From: an uncultured Verrucomicrobiae bacterium
GTDB taxonomy: Bacteria > Verrucomicrobiota > Verrucomicrobiia > Limisphaerales > Palsa-1400
NCBI GenBank assembly: GCA_963702845.1
Contig: OY969763.1
Location: 1,888,001-1,952,000, forward strand
Length of the DNA stretch: 64,000 nucleotides
Reading direction: 5' to 3'
This document shows, piece after piece, positions 1 to 58,826 of this stretch; positions within the stretch are counted from its first letter, which is position 1; each line of letters begins with the position of its first letter. Under the pieces are notes generated by a model. That model worked only from the letters and a program-made list of their open reading frames with translations, was not told the origin of the DNA and searched no databases. The position numbers and the translations under genes are program-made.

Positions 1-378
1 AAAGAACGTCGAAGTTGCGTGCGCAAGATGATGGTTGAGAAATATCGCACGTTCACGGAAAGGGACAGCCTTGTGCAGAGAATTCCCAGCCACGATCGCA
101 ACATCTTCCAAAGTAATACCTGCGGCGTCTAAACAATACTGCATTGCAGGCGTGAGATTTTTTTCATTTTCTTGTGAATCCTTTGCTTCTAGATTCATTA
201 GCGAAAATTGCGCGGGATTGTATCGTGACTCACCGTAAAGATGCAAAGCGTGCTTCGCACGAGACAATCGTTCTTCTTCAATAGCCACAACGATATCAGC
301 GCCTTTGAACAGGCAAACAGACCGATCATGCAGCGAATCCGAAAATCCAATTATGAATTGCGAGGTGTGTTTGGACAT
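1..378 (-). CDS. Carbamoyltransferase, NodU/CmcH family (N-terminal part; runs off window edge)
   Basis: Manual translation from ATG at 378: MSKHTSQFIIGFSDSLHDRSVCLFKGADIVVAIEEERLSRAKH...YCLDAAGITLEDV...NHHLAHATSTFF. Contains the HD, EEERxxRxKH and HHLAHA signatures. Confidence 0.9.
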   Translation of the reverse strand, partial: MSKHTSQFIIGFSDSLHDRSVCLFKGADIVVAIEEERLSRAKHALHLYGESRYNPAQFSLMNLEAKDSQENEKNLTPAMQYCLDAAGITLEDVAIVAGNSLHKAVPFRERAIFLNHHLAHATSTFF

Positions 379-396
379 AAAAAATGGGTTTAGCTG

Positions 397-1398
397 TCAG
401 TCGCAGATAACGTTGGGTAAGATGGAATCCCATGCGTTTTTAGGAATCTCCCGGTTTATGACTTTGGAACGTTTTAGCCAGCGATCAGTTTTGTCGTAGC
501 GAGGATTATAGCCGCTTCTGGCGTGAACCGAGTTGCGATTATCGATTAGCAGAAGATCCCCTTTCTCGAGGGTCACTGATAAGGATCCCTCATTAAAATG
601 ATCTGTTAACGTCTTTAAAGCACCGGCAGCCTGAGTGTTATCACAGATGGTATACAAAGGATCGTATCTCAAGCTCGGTCGACTTGTTGTACCCGCGAAA
701 ATTGCCACTCGTGATGATGGAGAGGATCGAATCGAAAAAGATTCATCTGGGTCTATACGAAATAACGGCTCTTGAAGGGTCCTAATTACATCCTTATCAA
801 TTTGATTCGGTTCGAATCGGCTAACAAGTGTTTGGGCAGAATTATCGCCCTGTAAGCACAGCAGCGCAATAAAATCTGGATTATAATCAGTATGCGCGTC
901 TTCCGTATGCCATTTTAGTTCGACACTTCCGGTGCCTAATTGAAGCTGTGCATGTTCTTTGACAGGTCTGAAATCGTGAACTATCGCCCCTCCCAATTGC
1001 CCATGGTAGCCCACTGGCGTCCCACAAGTCGAAGCCAATGAAAGCAGAATCAATTCGGAAATGGACGAGTTTTCGCGCAAATCAAACACATTATCTACTG
1101 GTAAACCTTTGACCAAATACATTCCAGTGGGACTGGATTGATCCCGAAACGCCGTCAGGCTTTTAATTAAGTCGTCCGGAAGGTTTAAGTTGAAATTTGT
1201 TAGCTCTTCCGAAGTTCGGGCCTTTGAGGATATGTAAGAGTATCGAGGTTTGGCGGCCGATGTCTTCCCAATCAGCTCAGAAAGGAACGGAGGAATCATA
1301 TAGAAATCTGGTGATTCGTGAATCCGCAATTTTAGCGCCCTTTTACCAATCGCCACAAAGGGTATGGGCAACTCCGACTCCCGTCTTACCTTAATCAT
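397..1398 (-). CDS. Fe(II)/2-oxoglutarate dioxygenase, clavaminate synthase/VioC-like (TauD/TfdA)
   Basis: WHTEDAH (HxE), PDFIALLCL, GDLLLIDNRNSVHARS, DRWLKR. Start uncertain (1398 or 1299). Confidence 0.85.
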   Translation of the reverse strand: MIKVRRESELPIPFVAIGKRALKLRIHESPDFYMIPPFLSELIGKTSAAKPRYSYISSKARTSEELTNFNLNLPDDLIKSLTAFRDQSSPTGMYLVKGLPVDNVFDLRENSSISELILLSLASTCGTPVGYHGQLGGAIVHDFRPVKEHAQLQLGTGSVELKWHTEDAHTDYNPDFIALLCLQGDNSAQTLVSRFEPNQIDKDVIRTLQEPLFRIDPDESFSIRSSPSSRVAIFAGTTSRPSLRYDPLYTICDNTQAAGALKTLTDHFNEGSLSVTLEKGDLLLIDNRNSVHARSGYNPRYDKTDRWLKRSKVINREIPKNAWDSILPNVICD

Positions 1399-1598
1399 AG
1401 GCACCTCACTGGAGCGAAAAAAGAATACGCAAGTCGTTGAAAATTCAATGGGACGGGGGCACCCCAAATGCTGAAGAATTTGCAACTGGCATCCAACATG
1501 CGGCGAAGAGGTTCGAGGACTGAATTTAACACCTTCATGCTTGATATCTGTTATGTTCGGCCTCGTGGTTCGGGAGGCGGTGAGACGCCATTTCGACG

Positions 1599-1631
1599 AA
1601 GCCGACAATAATTTTCTGTGTCGGCTTTTTT
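1599..1631. promoter_or_regulatory. 9-bp inverted repeat plus T-run in divergent intergenic region (operator or terminator)
   Basis: AAGCCGACA-N11-TGTCGGCTT followed by TTTT. Confidence 0.4.
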
Positions 1632-1744
1632 ATCTCATATTTTGACCCTGAGTCAACTATTTCTTTCTTGTTGCGTAATTTCTTTCTTTAGGAAATTTCT
1701 TGCGTCCGCCTTCCATTTACTCGACGTTGCCCCGGTTTCATTTA

Positions 1745-2821
1745 ATGAACGTACGTCTTTCAACCCTTTTGGATCGTGAATTTAAGCGCCGTGCTACAGA
1801 AACCGGTTCTCAGTCCTCATTCAAAACTTTGGATGAACAGGCTTTCTTTCTTGGCGTTACAGCAAGTTGGTTAAGCCGGTTGCGCAATGGCCGGGCTCGA
1901 CTTTCTATTGAGCTTTCAAAACAATTTGCTGACCGCTTGCGCGGTGACAGAGAAGAAAGAAAAGATTTGTTGCATGAGCTACAAATTGCTGCCGAAATTC
2001 TTGAAGACAACAGTCCGTTGCGGTTCAAACGAGTCCATGAAGTGGAGGTCGATTCCGGTGGAGCATTACACAGCGTTCAATCATTTTTTGAATGGCTTTC
2101 GACAAAGAAAAGCGCGTTTGTGGCCTGTGAATATCGTGACCATCCGCGAACACATGCAGATGGCCGGTATAGTCCTGCTGCTGGAGATGCAGGTCGGGCA
2201 ATTTTCGAATCCGATATTACTTTTGCTTTTTTTCAGCCTTTTGGCCCTCCCGAACAGTATGAAAATTTAAATGAAAATTTTTACCATTGTCGGGAAGTGC
2301 GGAATTATTTGTTTCGTCTGACAAATTACGCAAGGAATGCCTTTCACAGAATCCTAGCTGCCGCGTTGGACGCTGCGACCGACGCGGGCGTCAAAAAGGA
2401 CGAAGACCTACTAAAAATATGTGAGCGTATAATTTTGTATGAACGAAACAGTAGGATTTACCCGACGAATTTTCTTTCCGGCCTTCAGTCCCGAATTTTC
2501 TTTTTAAAAATCCCAGAGCCCAAACTTGGTGAAGCTCCAAAACAAGTATTTGAGTGGGTTGCCTGTGCCGGTGGACGCGACTTTATTTTTGAACGTGACG
2601 CAACGTCCATGCCCCCCGAAGTTGTCGGCGATCAATTTTTCCCAATTGTTTCATTCTGGGAAAAGCATAATCGATTACCTAGTGCACCTGATGAATTGAA
2701 AAATGCTGTGAAAAATTCTCAGCAGGAATTTGGCGCGAAATTACCAGATGAATCATGGGAAATTTATCGTCAACCACAACCTGCTCTCGCTGAATGGAAG
2801 CAGAGTAAAATCAAACATTAA
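1745..2821 (+). CDS. XRE-type HTH protein with large unknown C-terminal domain
   Basis: EQAFFLGVTASWLSRLRNG helix-turn-helix pattern; TAATG overlap with next gene. Confidence 0.6.
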   Translation: MNVRLSTLLDREFKRRATETGSQSSFKTLDEQAFFLGVTASWLSRLRNGRARLSIELSKQFADRLRGDREERKDLLHELQIAAEILEDNSPLRFKRVHEVEVDSGGALHSVQSFFEWLSTKKSAFVACEYRDHPRTHADGRYSPAAGDAGRAIFESDITFAFFQPFGPPEQYENLNENFYHCREVRNYLFRLTNYARNAFHRILAAALDAATDAGVKKDEDLLKICERIILYERNSRIYPTNFLSGLQSRIFFLKIPEPKLGEAPKQVFEWVACAGGRDFIFERDATSMPPEVVGDQFFPIVSFWEKHNRLPSAPDELKNAVKNSQQEFGAKLPDESWEIYRQPQPALAEWKQSKIKH

Positions 2822-3906
2822 TGATTAACATTCCCGAAGAATTCAACCTGCCGGCGAGCCACGGTTTTACCATGGCTGGATGGAATTTCAGCTCGCAAGA
2901 AATTGCGTCCGCTATTAACGGCCAACGGATGCTCAATCCTGCTATGGAACTCGGAACAAACGAGTGCCCATGGAATTGCGATTTTTGTTTTACGGAAAGC
3001 TCGATAAATCCACAGGGGCGAAAACATCGGCTGACCAATGAACTTTCTCTGGAGAGACGTTTTCGGCTGATTGATGAGGCTGAAGCTCTAGGTACAAAAA
3101 GCATAAATTTTGCTGGTGCGGGAGAGCCAACCATTGAACCAAATTTCTGGATACTCTTGGAACGAATGCGAGAAAGAAGCATCACACCCATCATTTACAC
3201 GGAGGCTTCTCTAAAACTGCAAAACAAGGACTTTGTCTCACGCCTTTTTGATAGCGGCGCGACGGTCGTTGTGAAGATGAACTCTCTCTTCAATCCAGAA
3301 TACCAAGACAAGGTCTTGCGCGGGGTGCGCCCCAAGCCTGGAGTTCCAACACGCAGCTACAGTGAGGGCCGAAAAAAAGCTTTGGAATTGCTGTTGGAAG
3401 CTGGTTTTGCCAAATCTGTTCCCACTCGCCTAGCCTTCGACACAATTATCTGCCGTGAAAATGTTTCAGAAATAGAACAGATTCATCGCTACGCCCGCGC
3501 TCAAAATATTTTCGTAATCTTCGTTAATTATCTTCCATCAGGCCGAACATCTGACGGTCACACATCCGCGATTACTTGGGACGAGCAACATACTATTTTC
3601 AAGCGGTTGGCCGAAATTGACAGGAATGAATTCAAGATTGATCATGCGAGCCATTTTCCATATTCGGGTGGCGTTCCATGCACAATCCGCGGCTTGGGTT
3701 TATTCGTGAAAATCCAAGGACAAGTTTTTGATTGTCCCGGAGAAACCATCGCGCTTGGAAATCTTAAAGAGAAAAGTTTGAAGGAGATTTGGACGAAGGC
3801 TCGGGAGATTGCTCGTAATTTCAACGGAGAATGTTTACCTCGAAAATTATTTTGGCAACGAATGACGACGTCAAAATTACCGGAGGAAACTTTAGCCCGT
3901 GCCTGA
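2821..3906 (+). CDS. Radical SAM protein with SPASM/twitch-like C-terminus
   Basis: CPWNCDFC, GAGEP, C-terminal CTIRGLGLFVKIQGQVFDCPG...GNLKEKSLKEIW. Confidence 0.9.
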   Translation: MINIPEEFNLPASHGFTMAGWNFSSQEIASAINGQRMLNPAMELGTNECPWNCDFCFTESSINPQGRKHRLTNELSLERRFRLIDEAEALGTKSINFAGAGEPTIEPNFWILLERMRERSITPIIYTEASLKLQNKDFVSRLFDSGATVVVKMNSLFNPEYQDKVLRGVRPKPGVPTRSYSEGRKKALELLLEAGFAKSVPTRLAFDTIICRENVSEIEQIHRYARAQNIFVIFVNYLPSGRTSDGHTSAITWDEQHTIFKRLAEIDRNEFKIDHASHFPYSGGVPCTIRGLGLFVKIQGQVFDCPGETIALGNLKEKSLKEIWTKAREIARNFNGECLPRKLFWQRMTTSKLPEETLARA

Positions 3907-4230
3907 GGTTCATTTCATCTTGCACATTACCAACTAAAGCCCGAGCCCAGCGCCGAGGTCGTTGCGCAATTGACCGACACGCCTCCATTTGTCCGCCTCG
4001 GTTGCAGCGTATTCCACATGAAAATTGATTTCATCTGTTTGGCCCTTTACATCCCGCCCTTCCGCCGCAAATAACAACTGCCGAGTTATGATGCTTCAAA
4101 ATTGAAACGTGTTTGGCTATTTTGATTTGAAATTAGATATATGTTAGAATGGAAATTTCCACGAACCTAAGACTTAAGATTTACCGTTGAAGAGAGTGAA
4201 ACAACTACAGAGTATTTATAATTAAAAGCT

Positions 4231-6009
4231 ATGCCAATAATTGAAGGTCTGAGCGAAGCGCAGAATAATCCTCTCAAGCGGATAATCACATCCTCTGTCT
4301 GTGAGGTAATTCAATCTTGGGGGACTCCCATTCGCGCCGAAGATCTCTATCTTTTCATCGGAGAGCCTCCGTCCGAAGACCTAGGGGATTACACATTGTC
4401 TTGTTACCCGCTTGCCAAACAGCTGCGGAAATCCCCCGACATAATCGCGAAGCAGCTTGGTGAATGTTTATCCTCTTGTGCGAACTTTTCGTGCAAAGTG
4501 GTAGGACCCTATGTGAACTTTTCATTCCCAATTGGAGTTCTCGGTGAGCAGGTACTGACAAAGATATTAAATCGAACACTTGATCAACAATCAGTATTCG
4601 TAAACCCGCCGCGGGTTATGATTGAGTATTCACAGCCAAATACTCATAAGGAACTTCATGTGGGGCATATGCGGAATATGGCTCTTGGCTCGGCGCTAGT
4701 AAATTTATTTACAAACTGCGGAATCCCAACTCTTTCTTCAACATTTCCGGGTGATGTAGGGGCGCACGTAGCAAAGTGTCTTTGGTATTTGCAATATGTG
4801 AACAAGGAAGCCACCCCAGATGTTAAGCGCGGAGAGTGGTTAGGAAGCATATACTCAAAAGCAGTCAAAGCGTTGGAACTTATTGAGGAAGATTTGGAAA
4901 AGAAGCGTGCAGCAGATGAGCAAATCAGTGAGATACTTAGATGCATTGAGCAAAAACAAGGGGAAGCGTATGCGTTATGGCGAGAAACACGCAAATGGTC
5001 TATCGACCTGCTAGAGGAAATATACCATTGGGCAGGCGTCCGGTTTGATGTGTGGTATTGGGAATCTGAAGTTGATTCAGCCTCCGTTAGTTACGTCAAA
5101 CAGCTCCTGGCGGATGGCCAACTTATGCTATCCAACGGTGCCGTCGGCATGGACTTATCAGATGACGGACTGGGGTTCTGTTTGCTATTAAAATCAGATG
5201 GCAACGGTCTATATGCAACAAAGGATGTAGAACTTGCCCGCCGTAAGTTCGAGGACCACAAGATCGAACGGAGTATTTATATTGTTGATAGTGGGCAGTC
5301 TTTTCATTTGCAGCAGATATTCGCTGTTCTAAGACGCATCGGATTTCCGAATGCGGCGCAATGTGTTCATCTGAAATACGAGGTCGTGGAGTTGCCAGAG
5401 GGAAAGATGAGCTCCAGGCGCGGAAACATTGTACCAATTGCCGAACTGATAACACGAATGCAAGAAATTGTAATCAAGGATCACCTAGATAAGCATCGTG
5501 GCATTTGGTCTGATGTGGAGATCGAAGCGACGGCGAAACTGGTTGCGCGAGGAGCGATCAAATTCGGTATGTTGCGAGTAACGAATGAGCGGAAGATTGT
5601 GTTCGATATGGGTGAATGGCTTCGACTGGATGGTGATTCTGGTCCCTATTTGCAATATGCTTGCGTCAGATTAAACAGTCTTATTCGTAAAGCAAAAGAG
5701 GCCAATGGAAATTCCGATGCTGTATCGTGGCCTCTTTTGGACGTAGCCATAGAAAGAGAGATTGTAGTAATGATGAGCCGTTTTAATGATATCGTCGCCA
5801 CTGCATGTAAAGATTGTCAGCCTTCAATTATTTGCTCATACCTCATACGTCTCGCTCGTAAGTTCGCTAATTACTACGCTACTACTCAGATAATAATTCC
5901 CACTGATCCAGCGTTGACCCGAGCTAGAGTAGAACTTATGAGCGCTGTCAGATGTATTCTGGTAAGAGGCCTCGAACTACTTGGAATCGATGTCCCTGAA
6001 AGAATGTGA
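4231..6009 (+). CDS. argS: Arginine--tRNA ligase
   Basis: EYSQPNTHKELHVGHMRN (HIGH), KSDGNGLYATKD, GKMSSRRG (KMSKS), GDSGPYLQYA, C-terminal ELLGIDVPERM. Confidence 0.95.
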   Translation: MPIIEGLSEAQNNPLKRIITSSVCEVIQSWGTPIRAEDLYLFIGEPPSEDLGDYTLSCYPLAKQLRKSPDIIAKQLGECLSSCANFSCKVVGPYVNFSFPIGVLGEQVLTKILNRTLDQQSVFVNPPRVMIEYSQPNTHKELHVGHMRNMALGSALVNLFTNCGIPTLSSTFPGDVGAHVAKCLWYLQYVNKEATPDVKRGEWLGSIYSKAVKALELIEEDLEKKRAADEQISEILRCIEQKQGEAYALWRETRKWSIDLLEEIYHWAGVRFDVWYWESEVDSASVSYVKQLLADGQLMLSNGAVGMDLSDDGLGFCLLLKSDGNGLYATKDVELARRKFEDHKIERSIYIVDSGQSFHLQQIFAVLRRIGFPNAAQCVHLKYEVVELPEGKMSSRRGNIVPIAELITRMQEIVIKDHLDKHRGIWSDVEIEATAKLVARGAIKFGMLRVTNERKIVFDMGEWLRLDGDSGPYLQYACVRLNSLIRKAKEANGNSDAVSWPLLDVAIEREIVVMMSRFNDIVATACKDCQPSIICSYLIRLARKFANYYATTQIIIPTDPALTRARVELMSAVRCILVRGLELLGIDVPERM

Positions 6010-6615: not shown

Positions 6616-7383
6616 TTAGAACTTCAGCGTGAACTCCTGCTGACCAAGCGATGCTTTGATCCGCTCCACTTCTGCTGGTTGAGGCGGCTGTCCTTGTTCC
6701 GTAGCTTCCGGTGCTCGATTTCTCAAAGCCAGAGGAAGCCATGGCGCAAGATAGTGGATGTTTGACCATGCGGACCAAAACTCCAGTGACAACGAGTTGC
6801 CGTGAATGACACGTGAAGGAATACCCCACAGAGTCGTATTAAGGAACGCCATATCACAGGCTGTGCGGCTGATGTCTATCGCTGTCACCCGCAACCTGCG
6901 CCGGACATCCGGCACACAAGCTCCGGCGAACGATAGTATCATCGCACCTGCGCCACAGGCCGGTTCGCAAACTGTGATCTCGCGGTCAGATGGTAGCGAA
7001 GTTGCATCACCAATCATCATGCGAGCCATGAGGTCGCAAACCGGCTTGGGCGTGTGGAACTCGCCGTTCCATTGCTGTCCTTTCTGCGACAGCGCGAATT
7101 CCATGTAGTAGCCGCCTAGGATGTCTTCGAACGGACAACATTCCATTTGAATGATAAGCGCGCCCAGAGCTTCCGCGAACAAATCCAATTCAGATTTCTC
7201 CCATTGTTTCGCTTCTTCAAGGTATTCGGCCTCGCGCGTCTGTGCGGCAAGCGTGCAGGCGGCGAGGCGGACGAACGCGTCGAATACCATGCGTGTATCA
7301 TGGCGATGAGAAATCTCCTGAAGGATTTTGCGGAAGTCGCGCGTGTGCGACTTCGGTTTCATCTCAGCTGTAGAAGTAGCCAA
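6616..7383 (-). CDS. N-6 DNA methylase family protein (plasmid/ICE type)
   Basis: GEFHTPKPVCDLMA, EPACGAGAMIL, AIDIS, IHGNSL; no obvious NPPY motif. Confidence 0.75.
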   Translation of the reverse strand: MATSTAEMKPKSHTRDFRKILQEISHRHDTRMVFDAFVRLAACTLAAQTREAEYLEEAKQWEKSELDLFAEALGALIIQMECCPFEDILGGYYMEFALSQKGQQWNGEFHTPKPVCDLMARMMIGDATSLPSDREITVCEPACGAGAMILSFAGACVPDVRRRLRVTAIDISRTACDMAFLNTTLWGIPSRVIHGNSLSLEFWSAWSNIHYLAPWLPLALRNRAPEATEQGQPPQPAEVERIKASLGQQEFTLKF

Positions 7384-7864
7384 GCTCGCGAAGCGAGATG
7401 TGTTTCGAACTACCGACGATCACGTGGTCAACCACATCGATTTTGAGCAGTTGTCCCGCCCGTATCAAATCCCTCGTGGTCTTTATGTCCGCTTCGGAAG
7501 GTGTTGGATCGCCAGATGGGTGATTGTGCATAAGCACAATCGCGCCAGCTGCAATCGCGATCGCCGCTCTGAACACTTCGCGCGGATGAACGAGAATCTG
7601 GTCCAGAATTCCGATGGAGATTAGGTGATGTCCTTTGATGCGTCGCCTTGTATTCAAGAGCAACACAACGAAGCATTCACAATCAGGGTTGAAGTATGAC
7701 GACGTCGCAATGTGCGCCTGCCAATACTCCACGGCTGATTTCGGCTCCTCGCATATCTGCTTCTCGTCCGGCGTGACGCATTCCCGCAATGTTATCACCT
7801 TGTATTCTTTGGGCTGCTGTATCTTTCGTTTTGGTGGTGGCTGCTGGTCCAATAATTGGTCCAC
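7364..7864 (-). CDS. radC: RadC-like JAB domain protein
   Basis: VHPREVFR, HNHPSGDPTPSEAD, DHVIVG. Confidence 0.9.
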   Translation of the reverse strand: MDQLLDQQPPPKRKIQQPKEYKVITLRECVTPDEKQICEEPKSAVEYWQAHIATSSYFNPDCECFVVLLLNTRRRIKGHHLISIGILDQILVHPREVFRAAIAIAAGAIVLMHNHPSGDPTPSEADIKTTRDLIRAGQLLKIDVVDHVIVGSSKHISLRELGYFYS

Positions 7865-7878
7865 AAGTCCTTTCTGAA

Positions 7879-7991
7879 GCCGTCCATCCCGCCGAAGCGG
7901 GATCGCTTCGGGGTTAGATATGCTCGCTGGAAGCAGGACGGCGGAAACAGCGAACGAAGATGAAGGCGGCCTTTCTCAGGGAGAAAGGCCG
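7879..7991. other. Structured intergenic element (nested and alternative hairpins)
   Basis: GCCGTCC(7879)/GGACGGC(7936) stem; ATCCCGC-CGAA-GCGGGAT; alternative CCGAAGCG-GGAT-CGCTTCGG; CGGCCTTTCTC-AGG-GAGAAAGGCCG. Confidence 0.55.
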
Positions 7992-7996
7992 TTTGA

Positions 7997-8284
7997 TTAG
8001 TAGTCTTCCGGCAACAACACCGTTGTTGCCGATCGATCTGCTTCGGTGATGAGCCAGAAGCGGATTCCCGCTGTGGATTGATACACCGACAGCAAACGAA
8101 GGCCCTGTCGAAGCGACTGTTCGTTTTCCTTGCGGTCGTAATCCGGAATGTCGCCCCAATCGCCGGCCTGGTGCCGGCGAATTCCCATGAGAATGTCATC
8201 GGAAGTCAGGTATCGCAGCGCATTCGGCGTCGCGACGATGCGGCCAAGTCGAAACATGGCGATGGGCAAGGCCTCGGCATTCAT
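7997..8284 (-). CDS. Small plasmid-associated conserved protein
   Basis: LGRIVATPNAL...RHQAGDWG...RLLSVY...ITEADRSATTVLLPEDY, a pattern typical of plasmid/ICE genes. Confidence 0.7.
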   Translation of the reverse strand: MNAEALPIAMFRLGRIVATPNALRYLTSDDILMGIRRHQAGDWGDIPDYDRKENEQSLRQGLRLLSVYQSTAGIRFWLITEADRSATTVLLPEDY

Positions 8285-8610
8285 AGTTTGTAATCCTCGA
8301 ATGCCACGGCCAAGCCGTCCTCGTCGTCGCCCAACAAATCCTCAAGAGCCGCTTTGGTGGCGACTCTCTCGGCGTTGGGCTTGGCGTCTTTGGGGCACGC
8401 CGGACAACGAATCACGTTGATGACGCCGCGCCCGAATTCCCAGCCTACCGCTTTGAACTCGTCGCGGTAACTCGGTGAGAGCTTATGATGCGTGGGCAAC
8501 TTGCACCATGCTTCGGCTTCGTCTGGACTCAAGCCGGTGTCGAAGATGGCATCGTGCCAGAGATGATGTACATCCCATGGCTCGCTGCACGTTGAGCAAT
8601 GAACGTCCAT
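8281..8610 (-). CDS. Hypothetical Zn-binding protein
   Basis: CxxC twice (CSTC, CPAC); ATGA coupling to the next gene. Confidence 0.6.
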   Translation of the reverse strand: MDVHCSTCSEPWDVHHLWHDAIFDTGLSPDEAEAWCKLPTHHKLSPSYRDEFKAVGWEFGRGVINVIRCPACPKDAKPNAERVATKAALEDLLGDDEDGLAVAFEDYKL

Positions 8611-8622
8611 GTATTCCTCCGT

Positions 8623-9657
8623 TCATGCGATCAACGCTTTCACTTCCTCATCGGTGAGATCCTCGGCCTGATAGTTCTCCTGCGCAAAGACGTGCGTCTT
8701 CACAAAAGCGAACTTGGACAAACGCACGGCAACATCTTCACGCCCCGTCCGTCCCGATTCGTCTTCGTCAAAGACGATGACGATGCGGCTATTTCGATCC
8801 GTGTGCTCTCGAATGAACTTCTCCTGCACGTCAGACATGCTGCTACCCATGAGCGCGATCACTTTTTTGTATCCGTCCTGGTGCATGAGCATGCAGCCAA
8901 AGAAGCCTTCAACGATCACAAGCGCCTGGTCCTTTGGTTCTCTGAAGGCGCGCTCGACGTTGAATATTTCGAGCGACTTCCTGAACCCTGGCGGGAGTTT
9001 GTATTTCTCGGTGTCTTTGTCGGGTTCTCCGGCAAAGCGACCTGCATACGCGACAACCGCACCATCAGCATTGCAGATGGGAATCGCAATGCGTCCGGTC
9101 ATCATGCCTTTGGCGCAATATCCGATGCCGAAGTCCTGGATGGTCTCCGGCAACAGGCCGCGCTCGACAAGATACGGATGTGCATGGTCGAGCTTGTCCA
9201 AACGGAATTTGAGTGGCTTGTTCGGTCCGCCCGTGTCTTCCGGCTTGGCCGCTGGTTTGCTTGCCGGCTTCGGCTTCTCATTGGCAGGCTTGTCATGCTT
9301 CTCGTCAGATGGTTCCGGCTGGTCCTCACTTTCTTTGCATCCGGTCACGGCTTCGGGATCGAGACTGAACCATTCGATGGCTTTGACGGCCGCCGCGTGA
9401 ATCGTTACCCGCTCCATTTCGGCAATGAAATCAAGGACGTTGCCGCCATGTTTGCACTCCGAAAAGCAATTCCAGATGTTCTTGCTGATACTCACCCGGA
9501 ATTGCGTCGGGTTGCTGCCTTTGTGAATCGGACACGGACCACTTAGACTGTCTCCGCTTCGTTTGAATTGGTTCAAGAGGCCGTATCGGTCGAGAACCTG
9601 TTCCATTTTCAAAGCCTCTCTGACGGCTTTGAAATCTACATACGGTGATTTGGGCAT
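8623..9657 (-). CDS. DNA primase-like protein (CHC2 zinc finger + Toprim)
   Basis: CPIH...WNCFSEC...GGNVLD; IVEGFFG, ALMGS, FDEDESG; RBS AGGAG before ATG 9657. Confidence 0.85.
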   Translation of the reverse strand: MPKSPYVDFKAVREALKMEQVLDRYGLLNQFKRSGDSLSGPCPIHKGSNPTQFRVSISKNIWNCFSECKHGGNVLDFIAEMERVTIHAAAVKAIEWFSLDPEAVTGCKESEDQPEPSDEKHDKPANEKPKPASKPAAKPEDTGGPNKPLKFRLDKLDHAHPYLVERGLLPETIQDFGIGYCAKGMMTGRIAIPICNADGAVVAYAGRFAGEPDKDTEKYKLPPGFRKSLEIFNVERAFREPKDQALVIVEGFFGCMLMHQDGYKKVIALMGSSMSDVQEKFIREHTDRNSRIVIVFDEDESGRTGREDVAVRLSKFAFVKTHVFAQENYQAEDLTDEEVKALIA

Positions 9658-9779
9658 ATAACTACTCCTGTGGTTTGATTGTGAAGAACGGGACAGTTCG
9701 GGAGTGAACTGTCTCTGCACTACATCGTACGGAGCATTTAAAATCTGCCCAGACACTGGCATATGCCGTTTCCGGCAAG

Positions 9780-10691
9780 TCAGTTGAGAAGCGTGGAAGT
9801 CTCGCCAGCACGCCCGGTCTGCCAAATGTGCGAGAAAATCTCGCTTGGTTTCTCCGAAATGCTTCTGTCAGTGAATAGAAATAGCCCGTGACCGTGCTTT
9901 AATTGGCTACATGCATCCACCAAGGATTTCACCCGTGCTGCACTGATTGTGACGGTGAGGACGCGGAAGCGATGAAAGCCGTATCGTTTCTCGTATATGC
10001 GCTGCAACCATGTCGCCTCGTATGCGAGCAGTTTTCGAAGGAATGACGTTTGCAAGAAACTCTTCCGAATGACTGGCATCGTGCCGCGATCTGCTTCCAA
10101 AAAGAAACATGCCCTCTCGACTTTGCCATTCTCCGTCATGTATTCCAGTGCGAACACACGGTCTGGCGTTGTGGTCAGCCGAACCTGCGGGGCGATATTA
10201 ACCCGCCACTGAAACGGCTTTTCCTTTCCTCGAACCTGTAGTTCTTCCTCGGTGAGCAAGCGAATGCCTCGTTTACGACATGCAAGTTCCAATGCGACCA
10301 TGAAGTCTGAAACCAACAGAGCGTGTTCCAAGTACATGCGCTCGAGCTTTTGATTCTTTTCGCTCCACCGCTCATAGTGGCCTCCCAACTTGGTCTCCCG
10401 CTGAAGCAGTTTAATGCTCTTGTCTGCCAGAGCGCAGATGATCTCGCGCGAACCGCCCTTGTGATAATACTCCAGTTGGGCGCGCGGGCGCTCCAGATAT
10501 CCGTGATGATAGAGCGATTGAAGTCGACGCACGATACCCTGATGACTACCGCCAATAAGCGAGACGATATGCGAAGAACGCAGAAAACGATGCCGATGGA
10601 TGAGCCGGAGGATTTCGCGGTCGCGAGGCGTGAGGTAAATGGGGGCAACCGATGTGGTGCGCGTGAAGCGGGGAAGACGATGAAACTCCAT
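9780..10691 (-). CDS. Replication-relaxation (Replic_Relax) family protein
   Basis: N-terminal wHTH LTPRDREIL...RRLQSLYHHGYL; HALLVSD, PDRVF, FLEADRGTM. Confidence 0.8.
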   Translation of the reverse strand: MEFHRLPRFTRTTSVAPIYLTPRDREILRLIHRHRFLRSSHIVSLIGGSHQGIVRRLQSLYHHGYLERPRAQLEYYHKGGSREIICALADKSIKLLQRETKLGGHYERWSEKNQKLERMYLEHALLVSDFMVALELACRKRGIRLLTEEELQVRGKEKPFQWRVNIAPQVRLTTTPDRVFALEYMTENGKVERACFFLEADRGTMPVIRKSFLQTSFLRKLLAYEATWLQRIYEKRYGFHRFRVLTVTISAARVKSLVDACSQLKHGHGLFLFTDRSISEKPSEIFSHIWQTGRAGETSTLLN

Positions 10692-10729
10692 CGTGCCACT
10701 CTATCGGACACAACGAAGTGGGGAAGACA

Positions 10730-10987
10730 CTACGGTTTGCTTTTGCCGGCAGATTTGTGCGCTCTCGTGATGATCTTTGCCAAATCAACGCCGATGCCAT
10801 CCGCAAGCCGCAAGGCGGTTTCCAACGACGGTTTTCGCAGGCCGCGTTCAACGTAGCCGACCATTTGCTGCGATAATCCGCAGCGCTGCTCGACGGCGTA
10901 TTTGGTCAATCCACGCTGCTTCCGTTCGGCAGCGAGCATTCGCACGATGCGCTCGCTTCGTTCGGCGTAGGACTTGTGAGCATTCAC
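10730..10987 (-). CDS. XRE family transcriptional regulator
   Basis: GLSQQMVGYVERGLRKPSLETALRLADGIGV. Confidence 0.85.
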   Translation of the reverse strand: MNAHKSYAERSERIVRMLAAERKQRGLTKYAVEQRCGLSQQMVGYVERGLRKPSLETALRLADGIGVDLAKIITRAHKSAGKSKP

Positions 10988-11047
10988 TCGGGCAGGCTAT
11001 GCGTGATTGCGTTTGACACGATACGACACAACTGTTACGTACTGGCC

Positions 11048-11290
11048 ATGATCTTCATGAAGCGCATTGGACCGGATCCTCACGAAGGCGGTGCGGCAAC
11101 CCCTGGCTGCCGCGGTTGTCCTGATATCTGGGAGCTCGACAACGGCGATTTCGCCGTTATCGGTGCGGACATTACTGAACTTTCCTCATCGCTTCCGGCC
11201 TCGGCAAATTGTGGGCCGGATGAGCGTATCGTGCGCATTCCTCGTAAAACCTTGGTTCGGGCAAAGAACGATATCCCCAATTCCCTCTGA
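11048..11290 (+). CDS. Small hypothetical protein, divergent from XRE
   Basis: GCPDIWELDNGDFAVIG...ERIVRIPR; protein-like composition. Confidence 0.6.
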   Translation: MIFMKRIGPDPHEGGAATPGCRGCPDIWELDNGDFAVIGADITELSSSLPASANCGPDERIVRIPRKTLVRAKNDIPNSL

Positions 11291-11325
11291 CGAGTACTTC
11301 TGCACTTCGTCCTCGCCGTGGTATC

Positions 11326-11796
11326 ATGGTCGGCATGACAGGTTTGCAATGGGTAATCGACAATTGGCCGGTTGAAATCAATGCCATTGGGGTGATTGGC
11401 GGCCTCGTTTTCGCCGCGATTGCATACCGTTCTGAGGCTAAGACTAGGCGCATCGCCAACCTGCTCACGATCACGGCCAATCGCGAGCACATATGGAAGA
11501 AGTTCTACTCGCGGCCGGAATTGACTCGTGTCGTCGATCCATCGGTCGACTTAGTGAAGAAGCCCATTACGCCTGCGGAAGAGGAGTTCGTCACATCCGT
11601 CATTCTTCACATCAACAGTGCCTATTACGCCATGAAGGACGATTTGGTTGTGAAACTCGAAGAACTGCGCTGGGACGTGGGCGCATTCATGTCGCTGCCG
11701 CTGCCCCGAGCAGTTTGGGAGAAGACCAAGAAATATCAGAACAGTGATTTCATCGCGTTCGTGGAGATGTGTAGGACGGGGGGGCGTTTGCTTTAA
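11326..11796 (+). CDS. Hypothetical membrane-anchored protein
   Basis: N-terminal TM segment; clean ORF. Confidence 0.55.
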   Translation: MVGMTGLQWVIDNWPVEINAIGVIGGLVFAAIAYRSEAKTRRIANLLTITANREHIWKKFYSRPELTRVVDPSVDLVKKPITPAEEEFVTSVILHINSAYYAMKDDLVVKLEELRWDVGAFMSLPLPRAVWEKTKKYQNSDFIAFVEMCRTGGRLL

Positions 11797-11969
11797 AGTT
11801 GGTGGCGATCGTCGCGCGAAGTGTGGAGCGAAGATGCACTTTCATTACCAGAGAAAGCGATATCGAGCGATGGTTTCGTCTTCTGCGCGCGCTGCCGGCG
11901 GTGTGAGGAAGAAACGCCAACCTCGGACAAGTTGCAGATGTATTTGTGTATGGTACAATTGCCGCTGCC

Positions 11970-12245
11970 ATGAAACGCCCAATGAGCATCCGCGAAGAAG
12001 CCAATGCGCTCACCTGCTGCGCCGTGCGCAACGGATATCTTGAGGAACTCCATGCCGGCAAGCATTCAGCGCTCTTGGAAACTCCCGGCCTTTCGCGCAT
12101 CACGGACGCCGAGATGAAGAAGCTAATGATCCAAATTTCATCGAAGGTCTCCGAGCTCCTTTCGCTCAGAGAGACTAATCCGGACGAATACTGGCGGCAA
12201 ATGACGTTATTCAACGACCGTTACTGCGGCCGGTGGGAGAAGTAG
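11970..12245 (+). CDS. Hypothetical protein
   Basis: RNGYLEELHAG...SRITDAEMKKLM; abuts the convergent ATPase gene. Confidence 0.55.
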   Translation: MKRPMSIREEANALTCCAVRNGYLEELHAGKHSALLETPGLSRITDAEMKKLMIQISSKVSELLSLRETNPDEYWRQMTLFNDRYCGRWEK

Positions 12246-13544
12246 CTAATTCGGAGGAGAGACCATGCCGGCTCGCGCCATCCAGCGGTTGAGTTTCTCG
12301 TCTATCTTCGAACGACGTACAGCATATCGCATCCGAGATTGGGCGATACGGACGTCTTTCCTATTCATTGGGCTTTCGAGAGGTGGATGTGTCTTCGCTC
12401 GGAACGGCTCCTTGTTGGTTCCGTGGTCGAGGAGTTTCAGCGCCACCTCGAAGCGGCCAAGATCGGCAAGCGCGCTTGGCGGGAAAGTTTTCCCGAATTC
12501 TTTTTCCATGATCTCTGCGTCGGCGTAGCCGATGCGGAATGTAATAACAGTTCCCACGTTTCCGAATACCGCCTGACGCACGGGTAAAGAGAGTTGATCT
12601 ATGTATTGGTGCGAGAGAATGAGACAGAGTCGGTACCTGCGCGCTTCGGCGAGAATTGAAGCGAATGCATCAGTTGAGAAATTCTGGAACTCGTCAATGA
12701 ACAGGTAAAAATCACGTCGTTGCGATTCTGGAACGTTGGAGCGGGCCATCGCCGCCAGCTGGAATTGTGTGACAAGCAACGAGCCAAGCAGGTTTGCTTT
12801 CTCGTGTCCCAAGTGGCCTTTGGACAGATTGGCAATGAACAAACGGCCGTTGTCCATGACGAACGGAATACTCACTTTGTTCTTCACTTGGCCGAGAATG
12901 TTGCGAATCACCGGGCTCATCAGAAACTGGCCAAGCTTGTTTTGGATCGGCGCGATTGCTTCGCGGCGGAATCGGTCGTCATATCCGGCGTATTCCTCGG
13001 CCCAAAACGCTTTGATGAACGGGTCCTTGATTTGCCGGATCACTTTTTCCCGGTATGCATCGTCCGTGAGCATTCGGCTCACGCCAAGCAGCGTCGCATT
13101 CCGACAATCCAGAAGCGCAGCAACGGCATTGTAGAGGATGTATTCAAGCCTCGGCCCCCAGGAATCTCGCCAGATGCCTTTGAACGCCGAAACAATGCCC
13201 GATGCAACAAGGTGCCGGTCGTCCGGAGCAACATTGGTGAGCACGTTGAAGCCGATGGGGAAGTCCAAATCCCCCGGATTGAAATACACAACGTGATCAG
13301 TGCGTTTGGGCGGGATGTAGTCCAGGATTTCTTCGGCCAAATCGCCGTGCGGATCGATCAAACCAACGCCATGGCCTAACGCGATGTGCTGAACGATCAT
13401 GTTTTTAAGGAGCGTCGTCTTGCCGGAACCCGTCTTGCCAATGATATAGATGTGGTGGCGTTGGTCCTTTTCAGAAATGCCAAAAGGCAGGGCCTGTCCC
13501 CAGCCCTCACGCTCTCCGATCGTGATGTAGTCTTCGGGATTCAT
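12246..13544 (-). CDS. VirD4/TraD-like coupling ATPase (HerA/FtsK superfamily)
   Basis: HIYIIGKTGSGKT (Walker A), IDPHGDL, LFIDEFQNF (Walker B), EARRY, SHQY, GNVGT. Confidence 0.9.
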   Translation of the reverse strand: MNPEDYITIGEREGWGQALPFGISEKDQRHHIYIIGKTGSGKTTLLKNMIVQHIALGHGVGLIDPHGDLAEEILDYIPPKRTDHVVYFNPGDLDFPIGFNVLTNVAPDDRHLVASGIVSAFKGIWRDSWGPRLEYILYNAVAALLDCRNATLLGVSRMLTDDAYREKVIRQIKDPFIKAFWAEEYAGYDDRFRREAIAPIQNKLGQFLMSPVIRNILGQVKNKVSIPFVMDNGRLFIANLSKGHLGHEKANLLGSLLVTQFQLAAMARSNVPESQRRDFYLFIDEFQNFSTDAFASILAEARRYRLCLILSHQYIDQLSLPVRQAVFGNVGTVITFRIGYADAEIMEKEFGKTFPPSALADLGRFEVALKLLDHGTNKEPFRAKTHPPLESPMNRKDVRIAQSRMRYAVRRSKIDEKLNRWMARAGMVSPPN

Positions 13545-13959
13545 GGTTCCGGCACCAGCCGCAACACTCCACCGCACAGTGAAAACCCGCCTTCCTGTTT
13601 AGGCTTTCAGGTGCGACTTCCTTGGGAATCGTCGGCAGAATGCTTTTGGAGCAGCCGACGCGGTAATGGCGGCTGGTGTCGAAACCCGAACCCTTTCGGT
13701 GCCGTATCGTAGCACGGCACGTTTGGGCGGACGCGCCCTGCGGCGCGACTGATTTTGTAAAACGCCCATACTGGGCGGCGCTTTTTCCTCACTGCCAGCA
13801 AATGGCAGTGTCTTGACCGAATAGTCGTTCCGCCAGTCCTCCGCGCTCTACGCGAACGCTTCGCGCTAGCGAGCGCGTGTATCCTCCACGTTTTACGCGT
13901 GAACGGTCGTGATAACGAAGACGTGATTTGTGCGATAGCACCTTCTCTCAAAACCCGTC

Positions 13960-14767: not shown

Positions 14768-15346
14768 CTAATTACACAATCGGCCTGCGGATAAGATGGT
14801 TCTGATTACTTTTGATTCAGTGTCAGTCGTCCCGTCTAACACCAAGACTTGTGGGATTGTCTCCGCAAGTTGATGGAGATGTCGGTCGACGGTTGATCTG
14901 AAACCTTCATCAGTGTCGCGCGGCTTTTCGGGATCGATTGTAACCGGTGCTGTGGCTTTCGAGTATATTAGACAGCCGTAGGTCAAACAGTGGTGGGCAA
15001 CTAACTCGCGGAGGTATGCTTGGCGCCGCGTATCGAGCTTTTCATTCCGGAATTCAAACGCCGCCAGCTGATAGCCAAGCGCGTCGACCGGAGGCCGGTC
15101 GACAAGCAGAATATCTTGCGTTTTGTGTTCGAGTTCCAAGCTAATTCCTCGTGCCATCATCCACAATGTGCTCTCAAATGTATGATTCGCTAGGATTGGA
15201 AATCCGCGATCCCGGGCCTCCACAGCCAAACCACCGAGAGTTTTTACTGACAATCCTCGGTTTACGAGTTCCGCCTCAAGCTTTTTCAAAAAGCTCGACT
15301 TGCCCGTAGAATGGGTGCCGAAAATTCCGATTTTAAATTGAGCCAT
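14768..15346 (-). CDS. P-loop nucleotide-kinase-like protein (AAA_28/NadR/thymidylate kinase-like)
   Basis: KIGIFGTHSTGKS, LLVDRPPVDALGY, RDTDEGFR; start overlaps the upstream radical SAM stop. Confidence 0.8.
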   Translation of the reverse strand: MAQFKIGIFGTHSTGKSSFLKKLEAELVNRGLSVKTLGGLAVEARDRGFPILANHTFESTLWMMARGISLELEHKTQDILLVDRPPVDALGYQLAAFEFRNEKLDTRRQAYLRELVAHHCLTYGCLIYSKATAPVTIDPEKPRDTDEGFRSTVDRHLHQLAETIPQVLVLDGTTDTESKVIRTILSAGRLCN

Positions 15347-16475
15347 TATCGTTCCATCCAATGTCAGCACGTCCGTGTCGCCCAATTTTATGTGGGTGTT
15401 TTCGATCGTGCACCTGAAAACGAAGATTATGCTGCAAAAAATACCGATATTGTTCGTCCAAATCATCGAATTCGATGGCCCGGTCAGTTATCGAGAAAGA
15501 TTTATCGGTTCTGCCGATTGCCTTTAATAAGAGTGAGACGGCGGAGTCGTCGGGTCGTCGATGGCGATGCGAGCACAAATCTACTTGGCCTCTTGGGCAA
15601 ATATCGCAAAGCTCGGTGATTCCGAAATGCCCGTTATAATCTGCGTCGCCGTGTGCAAAACAAACGCCGCACGAAGTCTTTCTGAAAAGTTTGTGCCTTT
15701 CGCCGGCGGTAGTAAATGTGGCGATGATTTGGCGTTCAAGATCTTCAGGCAAGATTTTTCGACGGGCTGTGGCCCCGTACGGTTCCGGCAAACCAGCCTG
15801 TTGATAGAATGCTTTTATCTCGTCTCTATAGAATAGCCCCGTGAAGACCGTCGCGTGCGAATGTCGGCTTAAATCAACCGCCTTCGTGATGTCCTCATCT
15901 CGGTCGTTAAGTCCAGGGACGATTGGCCGCCAATATTGCACGACTCGAAACCGCTCGGCCTGCGAGTAAGCTAACTTCAGCGAGTGCTCGGCAATCGAAC
16001 TGTCGATAGGTTCGATGCGACCGTCCTGAATTCCAGAATGTGTGATCAATAACGTAATCCGCAAGGAGCGCAGAGCATTCAACCTCATGCAATCTTCTGC
16101 GAGCACTTTGTACCGGCTGATCACGAGAACGTGGTTCTTCAGTTGCATTGCATCCATCGCATTTAAGACAGCAAACAGGTGCGGTTTAACCGTTGGTAGA
16201 AATGGATCGGTCGCACGGTTGAAAATCTGGATCGGCGTGATGTCTCTACGGAAAAATTTGTGCCCGATTAGCAGGCCAACCGCCTCGTTATCGGACATGA
16301 GGAGCGCGGGTTCCTTCATCTCGAAATTATTGAACAGATGCCGAACGCAATAGGCACAATCAAGTGGACATCCGATGACGTGATTTAAGCTTAACCCTGA
16401 CTTCCGGTACTCAATCGGGTCCTGTAGGCTGGAATTCAAGCCCACCCATTGAGATTGCGAAATGTGTCTCAACAT
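15333..16475 (-). CDS. Radical SAM protein, SplB-like
   Basis: SLNHVIGCPLDCAYC, ATDPF, RIEP, RPIVPGLND. Confidence 0.85.
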   Translation of the reverse strand: MLRHISQSQWVGLNSSLQDPIEYRKSGLSLNHVIGCPLDCAYCVRHLFNNFEMKEPALLMSDNEAVGLLIGHKFFRRDITPIQIFNRATDPFLPTVKPHLFAVLNAMDAMQLKNHVLVISRYKVLAEDCMRLNALRSLRITLLITHSGIQDGRIEPIDSSIAEHSLKLAYSQAERFRVVQYWRPIVPGLNDRDEDITKAVDLSRHSHATVFTGLFYRDEIKAFYQQAGLPEPYGATARRKILPEDLERQIIATFTTAGERHKLFRKTSCGVCFAHGDADYNGHFGITELCDICPRGQVDLCSHRHRRPDDSAVSLLLKAIGRTDKSFSITDRAIEFDDLDEQYRYFLQHNLRFQVHDRKHPHKIGRHGRADIGWNDNGSI

Positions 16476-28363: not shown

Positions 28364-28780
28364 TCAGCGTACGGTTTTCTCGGGTTCGGTGATCGTTCCC
28401 TTAGAGTTCCACCACTTTTCGACTTCCGCTTCGGACATCTGGGGCATTTTACCGATGAGTAGCCTCACTTTGTTACGCCGGAGGATAAAATGGCTGCAGC
28501 AGCCAGTGGTTAGCCAAACTGAAGGCCACAAGGACAAACCGTACTTTGGTTCCAAAGCCATTCGCCAAGCTAATCCCGTTTCCGGCATGAGATTCACTGA
28601 TATTATCTCACCACAGCCGCACGGGCAGAAGAATTTGAGGCTTTTTGCGCGTTTGTTCGGAATGACGATTACAAGCACTCCAGGTTTGATGAGTGATGAA
28701 GCCTGAGTTTGATCATGCGCCCTGACAACCTTGGAGTATTTAACGTCCCTATACGAAAATTTCACTTCGAGACCACTCAT
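28364..28780 (-). CDS. DUF6527-like metal-binding protein
   Basis: FFCPCGCG...LSLWPSVW...GCCSHFIL. Confidence 0.75.
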   Translation of the reverse strand: MSGLEVKFSYRDVKYSKVVRAHDQTQASSLIKPGVLVIVIPNKRAKSLKFFCPCGCGEIISVNLMPETGLAWRMALEPKYGLSLWPSVWLTTGCCSHFILRRNKVRLLIGKMPQMSEAEVEKWWNSKGTITEPEKTVR

Positions 28781-52830: not shown

Positions 52831-53007
52831 CTGATCCCCAACGTCTAGATTGAAGTCGAAGGCCGGCAGTGCTGCTTCGACAAAGCAAAGTATCCTAAGG
52901 CAAAGCAGATCGGGGTCCAACGTTGCCCCATGGGTTTTATAGACCAAATTAAGTTCGGAATGAGTGACAAAAAACCAACAATGATTCCGGTGTAAATCGA
53001 ACTGTTC

Positions 53008-57605: not shown

Positions 57606-58445
57606 TTAGTTAAGGTTTGATTCGAAGTCCACAGGTGATTGGTAACCGAGAGCGCTGTGGAACCGCTTGCGGTTATAAAAGACTTCGATCCATTCAAAGA
57701 TGGCGGCACGAGCTTCAGCTCGAGTCGCGAAGTGGCTGCGGTGGACCAAACCGCATTTGAGCGTGCTCCAAAAACTTTCCATCAGCGCATTGTCATAGCA
57801 GTTGCCGCGACGGCTCATGCTCGGGATCACGCCCGCCTGGCAGAGGCGTTGACGATAGGCCGAGCTGGCATACTGCACGCCGCGATCGGAATGATGCACC
57901 AATCCGCTGGGCGGTTGGCGTTGCTTGAGTGCCATCTCCAGAGCGGCCAAAGGCAATGTTGTTGCCAACGTCTCGTCGAAAGCCCAACCGATGCAGCGAC
58001 GTGTGCAGCGATCGACCACGCCAGCGACATAAAGCCAGCCTTCATCGGTGGGCACGTAGGTGATGTCGGCAACCCACACGGTGTTCGGCTGCTGCGTGGG
58101 TTGACGATGGGCCAGCAAATTAGGCGCGACTGGAAAGTCGTGATTGCTGTCGGTCAAACTCAGGGGGCGAAAGCGTCGGCGCCGACGAGCTGATAAACCG
58201 ATACGTCGCATCAATCGGCTCACACGCATGCGACCGCATCGATGGCCGCGCTCGCGTAGCCAGCGCATGACGCAAGGACTGCCATAGCTTTGGCGGCCTT
58301 CCTGGTGGGCCGCTTCGATCAGCGGCAGCAACAGCGCGTCGGCTTGAGCGCGAGGTCCCGGCTGGCGACATGCCCAATCGTGATAGCCGCTGCGCGTGAC
58401 CTCCAGGGCCTCACAGAGTTGGCTGATGGAATATTCGTGCTGCAT
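57606..58445 (-). CDS. IS3 transposase OrfB (DDE)
   Basis: WVADITY, HHSDRGVQY, GNCYDNALMESFW. Confidence 0.95.
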   Translation of the reverse strand: MQHEYSISQLCEALEVTRSGYHDWACRQPGPRAQADALLLPLIEAAHQEGRQSYGSPCVMRWLRERGHRCGRMRVSRLMRRIGLSARRRRRFRPLSLTDSNHDFPVAPNLLAHRQPTQQPNTVWVADITYVPTDEGWLYVAGVVDRCTRRCIGWAFDETLATTLPLAALEMALKQRQPPSGLVHHSDRGVQYASSAYRQRLCQAGVIPSMSRRGNCYDNALMESFWSTLKCGLVHRSHFATRAEARAAIFEWIEVFYNRKRFHSALGYQSPVDFESNLN

Positions 58446-58764: not shown

Positions 58765-58826
58765 GTGTGCTGGTCCCTAGCTCACACGTTCAGACACTCC
58801 CTGTCCACCAAATCGAGGCAAGCCCA

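Follow-up and report, generated by a model that had tools for sequence, protein, structure and literature searches.

At the left edge of a 64,000-nucleotide stretch of DNA from an uncultured Verrucomicrobiae bacterium (the window; C1:1888001-1952000, C1 being contig OY969763.1 of assembly GCA_963702845.1, a 6.03-Mb single-contig genome of 54% G+C content, GC), a second arginyl-tRNA synthetase (ArgRS) gene shares a compact low-GC cassette with six further genes, and this cassette is cargo inside an integrative element. Our preferred reading, which we hold to be plausible though short of probable, is that a four-gene run in the cassette builds a hydroxylated, carbamoylated antimetabolite of the arginine, ornithine or lysine type, with the foreign ArgRS conferring immunity to it. 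That a natural antibiotic targets ArgRS is a recent finding, made for trifolitoxin and the tiarins, a family of peptides made on ribosomes and modified after translation (RiPPs), and a duplicated ArgRS for self-resistance is already known from the tiarins. If our reading is true, an amino-acid-level small-molecule route to an ArgRS inhibitor, or to a mischarged arginine mimic, would represent a second, chemically different class.

The cassette comprises the following genes (window positions, or C1 positions where marked).

C1:1885141-1885629, left of the window, same strand as the carbamoyltransferase: ElaA-like GNAT, 162 aa.
C1:1885633-1886619, left of the window, same strand as the carbamoyltransferase: M20/ArgE-like deacylase, 328 aa.
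1..378, reverse strand: 5' part of an O-carbamoyltransferase of the NodU/CmcH/TobZ type (whole gene C1:1886717-1888378, 553 aa), assigned by family motifs and by matches to GdmN, NovN and TobZ.
397..1398, reverse strand: clavaminate-synthase-like (CSL) Fe(II)/2-oxoglutarate (2OG) dioxygenase, 333 aa, which opens the four-gene run.
1745..2821, forward strand: XRE/cro-type helix-turn-helix (HTH) protein, the likely regulator of a separately mobile two-gene module.
2821..3906, forward strand: uncharacterised radical SAM/SPASM enzyme with a CPWNCDFC motif and three C-terminal cysteines.
4231..6009, forward strand: second, xenologous ArgRS of Bdellovibrionota/Oligoflexia type, 592 aa, with HVGH, KMSSR and arginine-binding residues.

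All five open reading frames (ORFs) named in the initial annotation are intact and in place, with the carbamoyltransferase and the HxE-type dioxygenase on one strand and the HTH, radical SAM and ArgRS genes divergent from them. Its expectation that the cluster continues to the left was borne out by an acetylase/deacetylase pair, the GNAT and the M20/ArgE-like deacylase. Read from the left, GNAT, M20 enzyme, carbamoyltransferase and dioxygenase are transcribed leftwards with gaps of 3 nt (M20/GNAT), 97 nt (carbamoyltransferase/M20) and 18 nt (dioxygenase/carbamoyltransferase); a 346-nt gap, the HTH and radical SAM genes, a 324-nt gap and argS follow, these three genes being transcribed rightwards. 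The seven genes have 44–47% GC and 0.37–0.45 at third codon positions (GC3), versus 52–54% in the flanking backbone genes measured and 54% in the genome, and form a low-GC block of about 10 kb with sharp edges; the cassette as such takes up only 9 kb. The mobile element that had been placed beside the cluster is present, but the cassette lies inside it: its left flank has a serine recombinase and a gene resembling a type IV coupling protein (T4CP), its right flank genes for an N6-methylase, RadC, a primase, Replic_Relax and a T4CP. The low-GC island that encloses the cassette measures roughly 120–130 kb.

The cassette argS is, by its sequence and phylogeny, a foreign, horizontally acquired second copy. 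Its product clears the TIGR00456 cut-off (343 versus 262 bits), has a three-domain architecture (PF03485, PF00750 and PF05746) and is 26% identical to the product of the housekeeping argS, which sits among core genes 2.9 Mb away (C1:4755888-4757618). Genomes of close relatives yielded matches of 25–30% at most (30 of 30 relatives); none of 400 genomes of the order matched at E ≤ 1e-70, and six of 300 genomes of the phylum matched at E ≤ 1e-80, all at 32–35% identity. A sole or vertically inherited argS is ruled out by the distant housekeeping copy together with the low identity in relatives. In a database search that scored the 7999 best candidates, the best 120 matches, the query itself aside, are 46–54% identical; Bdellovibrio and Oligoflexia are among the few that carry a taxon name. 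A quick maximum-likelihood search over 55 rows, supported by the Shimodaira–Hasegawa-like approximate likelihood-ratio test (SH-aLRT) only, places the cassette enzyme, its nearest relative P0127 and a metagenome fragment (L056) together (SH-aLRT 100), as a clade within the Bdellovibrionota-type enzymes, with the cassette enzyme on a long branch (tip 0.88 versus a median of 0.25). One row, V_L140, was ignored as a long, compositionally odd ORF that is probably in the wrong frame. The second, housekeeping argS that the initial annotation proposed to look for is present, and its notion that an extra aminoacyl-tRNA synthetase (aaRS) gene can serve self-resistance has an experimental precedent in the tiarin ArgRS, as described in the accessible part of the preprint (bioRxiv 10.64898/2025.12.02.691738).

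The HVGH and KMSSR motifs are present in the cassette ArgRS, and E. coli D118, N123, H132, Y313, D317 and Q341, listed as arginine-binding in the available portion of PMC3956977, correspond to E132, N137, H146, Y328, D332 and Q356. Because equivalents of the arginine-binding residues are kept, the enzyme is likely to be catalytically active. Compared with the E. coli-like host ArgRS, its pocket differs at two places, where Asp is replaced by Glu132 (D118>E) and Arg by Lys339 (R324>K). The cassette enzyme departs from 19 of the 198 columns in which 118 relatives show at least 90% conservation (median of the relatives 3, maximum 14), and P0127 also differs at 10 of these 19.

The dioxygenase starts at the ATG at 1398, preceded by a GAGG site, and carries the triad H164-x-E166...H292 together with the conserved R294 and R306 that mark CSL enzymes. 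Its best solved matches are AsnO, which ranks first, and 6DAW, CmnC, OrfP and VioC; 6DAW we take to be NapI. The nearest relatives among 1.84 billion representatives are 44–46% identical. In the pocket-position scheme set out in the accessible text of PMC6224419, where acidic residues at P12 and P15 are tied to positively charged side chains, the enzyme has Gln134 at P2, Asp218 at P12, Ser220 at P14, Asp246 at P15 and Leu248 at P16; Asp at P12 and Asp or Glu at P15 occur in 25 of 25 aligned rows each, the window protein included. With VioC, OrfP, CmnC, KDO1, AsnO and GntD it has in common the two conserved arginines, the triad and the P2 Gln, P12 Asp, P14 Ser and P15 Asp, as far as that part of PMC6224419 goes. 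We therefore predict a basic amino acid, not specifically arginine, as the substrate. Identity as a VioC-type arginine beta-hydroxylase was rejected on the score under the TIGR03946 cut-off and on Leu248 at P16.

The carbamoyltransferase matches GdmN, NovN and TobZ at E values of 3e-60 to 1e-53, and its homology is full-length and two-domain, with a score under the NodU equivalog cut-off; what we take to be the family motifs are intact. Plasmid-borne relatives cover 97–100% of it at 32–35% identity, 35% being the best, while no viral relative was found and none of the 400 order genomes matched at a strict E ≤ 1e-95. Among solved structures, the M20 enzyme matches N-acetylcitrulline deacetylase best, at an E value of 8e-13 only, and the GNAT is a single-domain ElaA-like protein; both were scanned against NCBIfam only. 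Taken together, we envision that the dioxygenase would hydroxylate arginine, ornithine, lysine or a close derivative, as its pocket predicts, and that the carbamoyltransferase would O-carbamoylate a hydroxyl, most simply the newly made one, as the chemistry of its family suggests. The GNAT may N-acetylate the product, masking a toxic amine that the M20 enzyme would unmask. The host ArgRS, of E. coli type, would be sensitive and the cassette ArgRS insensitive, by analogy with the tiarin clusters; the second argS, which its phylogeny assigns to another sequence class, does share one compositional block with the enzymes.

Several known systems resemble parts of this scheme. In the tiarin clusters, as the accessible part of bioRxiv 10.64898/2025.12.02.691738 presents them, a second ArgRS with a different pocket gave resistance to an ArgRS inhibitor and GNATs are frequent; the trifolitoxin/tiarin arrangement of a cluster ArgRS, a housekeeping copy elsewhere, differing pockets and a nearby GNAT thus recurs here. 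However, tiarins are, in that account, RiPPs made with a precursor peptide and the FMN (flavin mononucleotide) dehydrogenases TfxB and TfxC, whereas the cassette enzymes would tailor at the amino-acid level; no TfxB/TfxC-type FMN-dependent dehydrogenase pair occurs among the seven genes, each of which belongs to another family. Also, the E. coli-type ArgRS is described there as the resistant one, while here the host copy is of the E. coli-like type. The carbamoylpolyoxamic acid branch of polyoxin biosynthesis (PolL, PolN and PolO), in the portions of PMC4029187 and PMC11611013 available, likewise acts on a five-carbon amino acid by acetylation, deacylation, carbamoylation of the NodU type and Fe/2OG hydroxylation. 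The cassette differs from what these portions describe in lacking the PolP kinase, the PolM reductase, nucleoside genes and a ligase; moreover, PolL is described in them as having no detectable homologues, whereas the cassette dioxygenase belongs to the CSL family. The polyoxin parallel is one of analogy, not homology. A plasmid region of Streptomyces BB1-1-1, which we take to resemble a streptothricin-type cluster, also holds a VioC/OrfP-like dioxygenase and a carbamoyltransferase in one cluster, together with a pyridoxal phosphate-dependent enzyme, nonribosomal peptide synthetase (NRPS) domains and a glycosyltransferase, none of which the cassette has.

A number of observations weigh against the antimetabolite reading. 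Leu248 at P16 leaves the dioxygenase without the third Asp of VioC, the residue that grips the guanidinium according to the accessible text of PMC6224419. The 6DAW protein likewise does without this Asp. Unlike the VioC group, moreover, the enzyme falls far under curated cut-offs (GntD 177 versus 345, VioC 146 versus 419 and CS1 119 versus 450 bits). The missing Asp, together with AsnO as the best solved match, means that arginine is not singled out as the substrate, so that of the Arg- or guanidino-directed role first proposed for the dioxygenase only a positively charged substrate is predicted. The Streptomyces plasmid cluster has its dioxygenase and carbamoyltransferase beside sugar and NRPS genes, and their co-occurrence is therefore no proof of a shared substrate. 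No exporter, ligase or scaffold enzyme is found among the seven cassette genes. Resistance-type active-site mutations in the cassette ArgRS were considered, but the changes seen are not diagnostic: R355G, the most striking substitution of its clade, is also present in human cytosolic ArgRS and hence no resistance marker, and at the D154 position a Gly is found in the yeast enzyme.

The linkage itself also speaks against it, since no second locus joining ArgRS to cassette enzymes was found among the radical SAM loci, the viral and order-level dioxygenase loci and L056. The best 80 of 149 viral dioxygenase relatives (28–38% identity) have ArgRS, M20, GNAT, HTH or radical SAM genes nearby in 0 of 80 cases and a carbamoyltransferase in one, 8 kb away; two of 400 order genomes carry a distant dioxygenase, neither with other cassette genes nearby, and none of 300 phylum genomes has a relative. 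L056, a fragment of 1.3 kb and 67% GC that lacks its upstream side and carries the same ArgRS clade, runs into a DUF1294 gene, which is not biosynthetic; L057, one of two metagenome motif-scan matches, has no ArgRS match and was taken as chance. The initial annotation had named missing linkage in other genomes as grounds for refutation; linkage is absent at every locus examined, all of them distant relatives or short contigs, and the cassette is a singleton among the genomes and loci searched. With close relatives of the four enzymes out of reach, this singleton status is no confirmation of a functional link and no strong refutation of one. The literature searched, from which most subscription journals are absent, yielded neither this enzyme set with an ArgRS nor work on VioC with a carbamoyltransferase, on an ArgRS structure with canavanine, or on radical SAM enzymes with agmatinase/amidinohydrolase. 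A look for sequencing runs gave none.

Codon usage bears on the same question from both sides. Ranked by closeness to the cassette argS, the dioxygenase and the carbamoyltransferase come second and third of 2264 other ORFs (300 codons or longer); argS is homogeneous with the two (permutation p 0.76) and lies a long way from its host counterpart (z 30). Weighing against a special tie, two further cargo genes of the island show the same homogeneity with the cassette enzymes (p 0.41 and 0.44), and M20 plus GNAT differ from argS (p 0.004). As the similarity is common to other island cargo, it indicates that the genes come from one pool of cargo, not that they act together. A later insertion of the HTH–radical SAM pair between argS and the dioxygenase, hinted at by codon ranks of 46 and 70 versus 3 and 4 (self = 1), was unsupported by permutation (carbamoyltransferase plus dioxygenase p 0.41, ArgRS p 0.07, each versus HTH plus radical SAM).

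The main rival, a genuine possibility that we nonetheless regard as doubtful, is that the cassette is patchwork cargo, in which a tailoring operon or cluster fragment, the HTH–radical SAM pair and a captured argS came to share one slot and the ArgRS is functionally unrelated to its neighbours. The codon similarity that extends to other cargo, the DUF1294 gene beside the same ArgRS clade and the want of an exporter or ligase in the cassette all fit this view, as do the decayed or start-less frames that flank the cassette modules and the much other low-GC cargo of the island, restriction-modification and E1-like defence genes included. It sits less easily with a 1.8-kb foreign argS that stays intact despite a housekeeping copy and whose codon usage is closest to that of the dioxygenase and carbamoyltransferase, and with the convergence of the dioxygenase pocket, the best match of the deacylase and a ureohydrolase-linked sister clade of the radical SAM enzyme (below) on basic amino acids. 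If the patchwork view is true, the locus would be an ordinary cargo pile-up, with interest confined to the radical SAM family.

The recurrence of the HTH–radical SAM pair elsewhere also favours the patchwork view. The HTH protein fuses an XRE domain (residues ~1–90) to a weakly PLD/TrmB-like domain (~98–345); a fold search gave middling Z scores of 7.0–7.9, and Foldseek gave no match at E ≤ 0.001, with TrmBL2 on top at 8.5e-3. Its stop codon overlaps the start of the radical SAM gene (TAATG), whose product combines the CPWNCDFC motif with three invariant, twitch/SPASM-like C-terminal cysteines (C287, C305 and C338). The radical SAM model (predicted local distance difference test, pLDDT, 86.9) resembles SkfB, anSME, PqqE and MoaA at 14–18% identity (template-modelling score, TM, ~0.5–0.6), and the fold and cluster motifs are common to these enzymes, BlsE and prokaryotic viperins; it differs from the SPASM/twitch enzymes in that identity is 13–19%, no curated family cut-off is reached and viperin matches are generic. 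Prokaryotic viperins are not known to have a C-terminal auxiliary cluster, and a viperin identity was rejected on a score of 32 bits only, the SPASM match and the three invariant cysteines. The family counts 264 matches, of which the best 120 are 55–78% identical, the query aside; it spans Verrucomicrobiota, which hold the nearest named loci, Acidobacteriota, Proteobacteria, Patescibacteria and DPANN archaea, and is conserved, with neither a name nor an assigned reaction. No member was found in 30 genomes of the host family or in phage records, and one viral match was weak and partial.

A genome scan returned 36 radical SAM loci, of which 17 full-length ones (51–67% identity) were kept and 19 short, weak matches dropped. 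The HTH partner lies directly upstream in seven of the 17 (the HTH profile derives from these seven, and under 1.2 kb of upstream sequence is present at two others), beside neighbours that vary and are unrelated between loci. Adding to the points against a common pathway, dioxygenase, carbamoyltransferase, M20, GNAT and ArgRS genes occur in 0 of the 17, although in 11 of them 9 kb or more flanks the gene on either side. Since the pair is found elsewhere without the other cassette genes, it has a history of its own; it is an independent module that need not join the pathway, and the proposal of five genes in one pathway is not supported.

Further observations on this family concern its neighbourhoods. 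In two distant phyla the pair is followed by a TrpX-like amino-acid ABC (ATP-binding cassette) importer (L006:10223-13118 and L021:11303-14059). Copies without an HTH partner (L009-L012, L014, L015 and L017-L020) come mostly from Patescibacteria and DPANN at variable sites; the L011 copy adjoins a retron-type reverse transcriptase, and the L014 copy lies one gene from a serine recombinase. Defence-type genes were noted at nine of 16 radical SAM loci (45 hand-picked ORFs, with no control), and a defence role for the HTH-less members is possible.

A sister clade of the radical SAM enzyme (29–31% identity, same family motifs) resides on Sinorhizobium and Azospirillum plasmids, with an agmatinase-family gene and an ATP-grasp ligase or a drug/metabolite transporter (DMT) exporter nearby in both regions opened, out of 11 plasmid records. 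In Sinorhizobium the order is radical SAM, agmatinase-family, a 534-aa protein of no known kind and ATP-grasp (L150:6917-11950), and in Azospirillum DMT exporter, radical SAM and agmatinase-family (L151:5893-9046). These loci look like an undescribed guanidino amino-acid pathway and give a modest hint of such chemistry for the cassette enzyme, though at such a distance substrates often differ; the partners (ureohydrolase, ATP-grasp, DMT) had no tblastn match in the 17 loci or the host genome. On the widest extension of our reading, all seven genes would belong to a single pathway whose product is a new arginine mimic, made without ribosomes, that inhibits ArgRS, with the radical SAM enzyme performing a new reaction on a guanidino amino acid, a hydroxylated and carbamoylated product, the fast-evolving Bdellovibrionota-type ArgRS as immunity and spread by a Verrucomicrobiota integrative element; we consider this unlikely.

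Rather unlikely, too, is a cassette that serves protection alone, against an arginine mimic from elsewhere, in which GNAT and dioxygenase inactivate the compound, the foreign ArgRS discriminates against it and nothing toxic is made. In the accessible part of the preprint, tiarin clusters secure immunity by two devices, GNATs and second aaRS genes, which fits this reading, and the lack of an exporter agrees with it; a deacylase beside the GNAT, however, would reverse detoxification. O-carbamoyltransferases spend ATP and carbamoyl phosphate, a cost that fits protection poorly, and the characterised matches of the cassette enzyme are biosynthetic tailoring enzymes. The donor role once suggested for the ArgRS, supplying Arg-tRNA for a tRNA-dependent amide-forming step, appears very improbable: the enzyme looks catalytically intact and aaRS genes are known in clusters with tRNA-dependent steps, such as that of valanimycin, but no Arg-tRNA-using transferase of Fem, ATE/Bpt, CDPS or LanB type was recognised among the seven genes (GNAT and M20 by NCBIfam only), and the GNAT is an ElaA-like protein of 162 aa with a single domain.

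Three further features of the window provide context.

3934..4095, reverse strand: 53-codon start-less frame between the radical SAM gene and argS, a possible gene remnant with no relative found.
4122..4150, forward strand: promoter-like site TTGATT-17-TAGAAT with an extended -10, 80 nt before argS.
6616..13577, reverse strand: integrative-element backbone (N6-methylase, RadC/JAB, primase, Replic_Relax, T4CP-like ATPase), outside the pathway.

Promoter-like sites in the region around the cassette are no commoner than in shuffles (14 versus 14.6), and the terminator count there is at chance level. Rfam gave no match at E ≤ 0.5 in 16 kb, thus no riboswitch or other RNA, and no precursor peptide, which in tiarins has a residue-Gln core motif, and no homologue stood out among the short gap frames listed, to which no motif model was applied. 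A single ArgRS match in viral contigs (36%) has no cassette gene nearby. At least 149 viral contigs (L058-L137 among them) encode distant CSL dioxygenases, and in one (L089:386-8967) the dioxygenase lies near genes that we presume to be of QueE/QueD/FolE type. On Pantoea plasmids (L054:9014-11002) a CSL dioxygenase is paired with an archaeal-type asparagine synthetase A/AsnRS-like gene, a further case of a dioxygenase with an aaRS-like neighbour.

Other observations concern the island. Just left of the GNAT lies a decayed frame (L002:4630-4960), presumably the start of an HD-domain gene, and a similar-looking gene at window positions 57606-59871 is cut by an insertion sequence-like transposase. 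Left of the island, alaS is split by a frameshift and a ribBA-like ORF starts mid-protein (L001:4077-7209), probably through assembly indels. A second radical SAM-like ORF (window 14768-16475, reverse strand; CPLDCAYC, no Pfam or NCBIfam match) overlaps an AAA_28 NTPase gene in a two-gene cargo unit, and a JAB/ThiF (E1-like) gene with a kinase-like neighbour (window 28777-31664, reverse strand) has weak PADLOC E1-E2 matches. Finally, an 18-base sequence at C1:1878245-1878262, within the final codons of the serine recombinase on the left, is found again in inverted orientation at two distal points of the island, C1:1940963-1940980 (window 52963-52980) and C1:2008847-2008864; these are candidate attachment sites.

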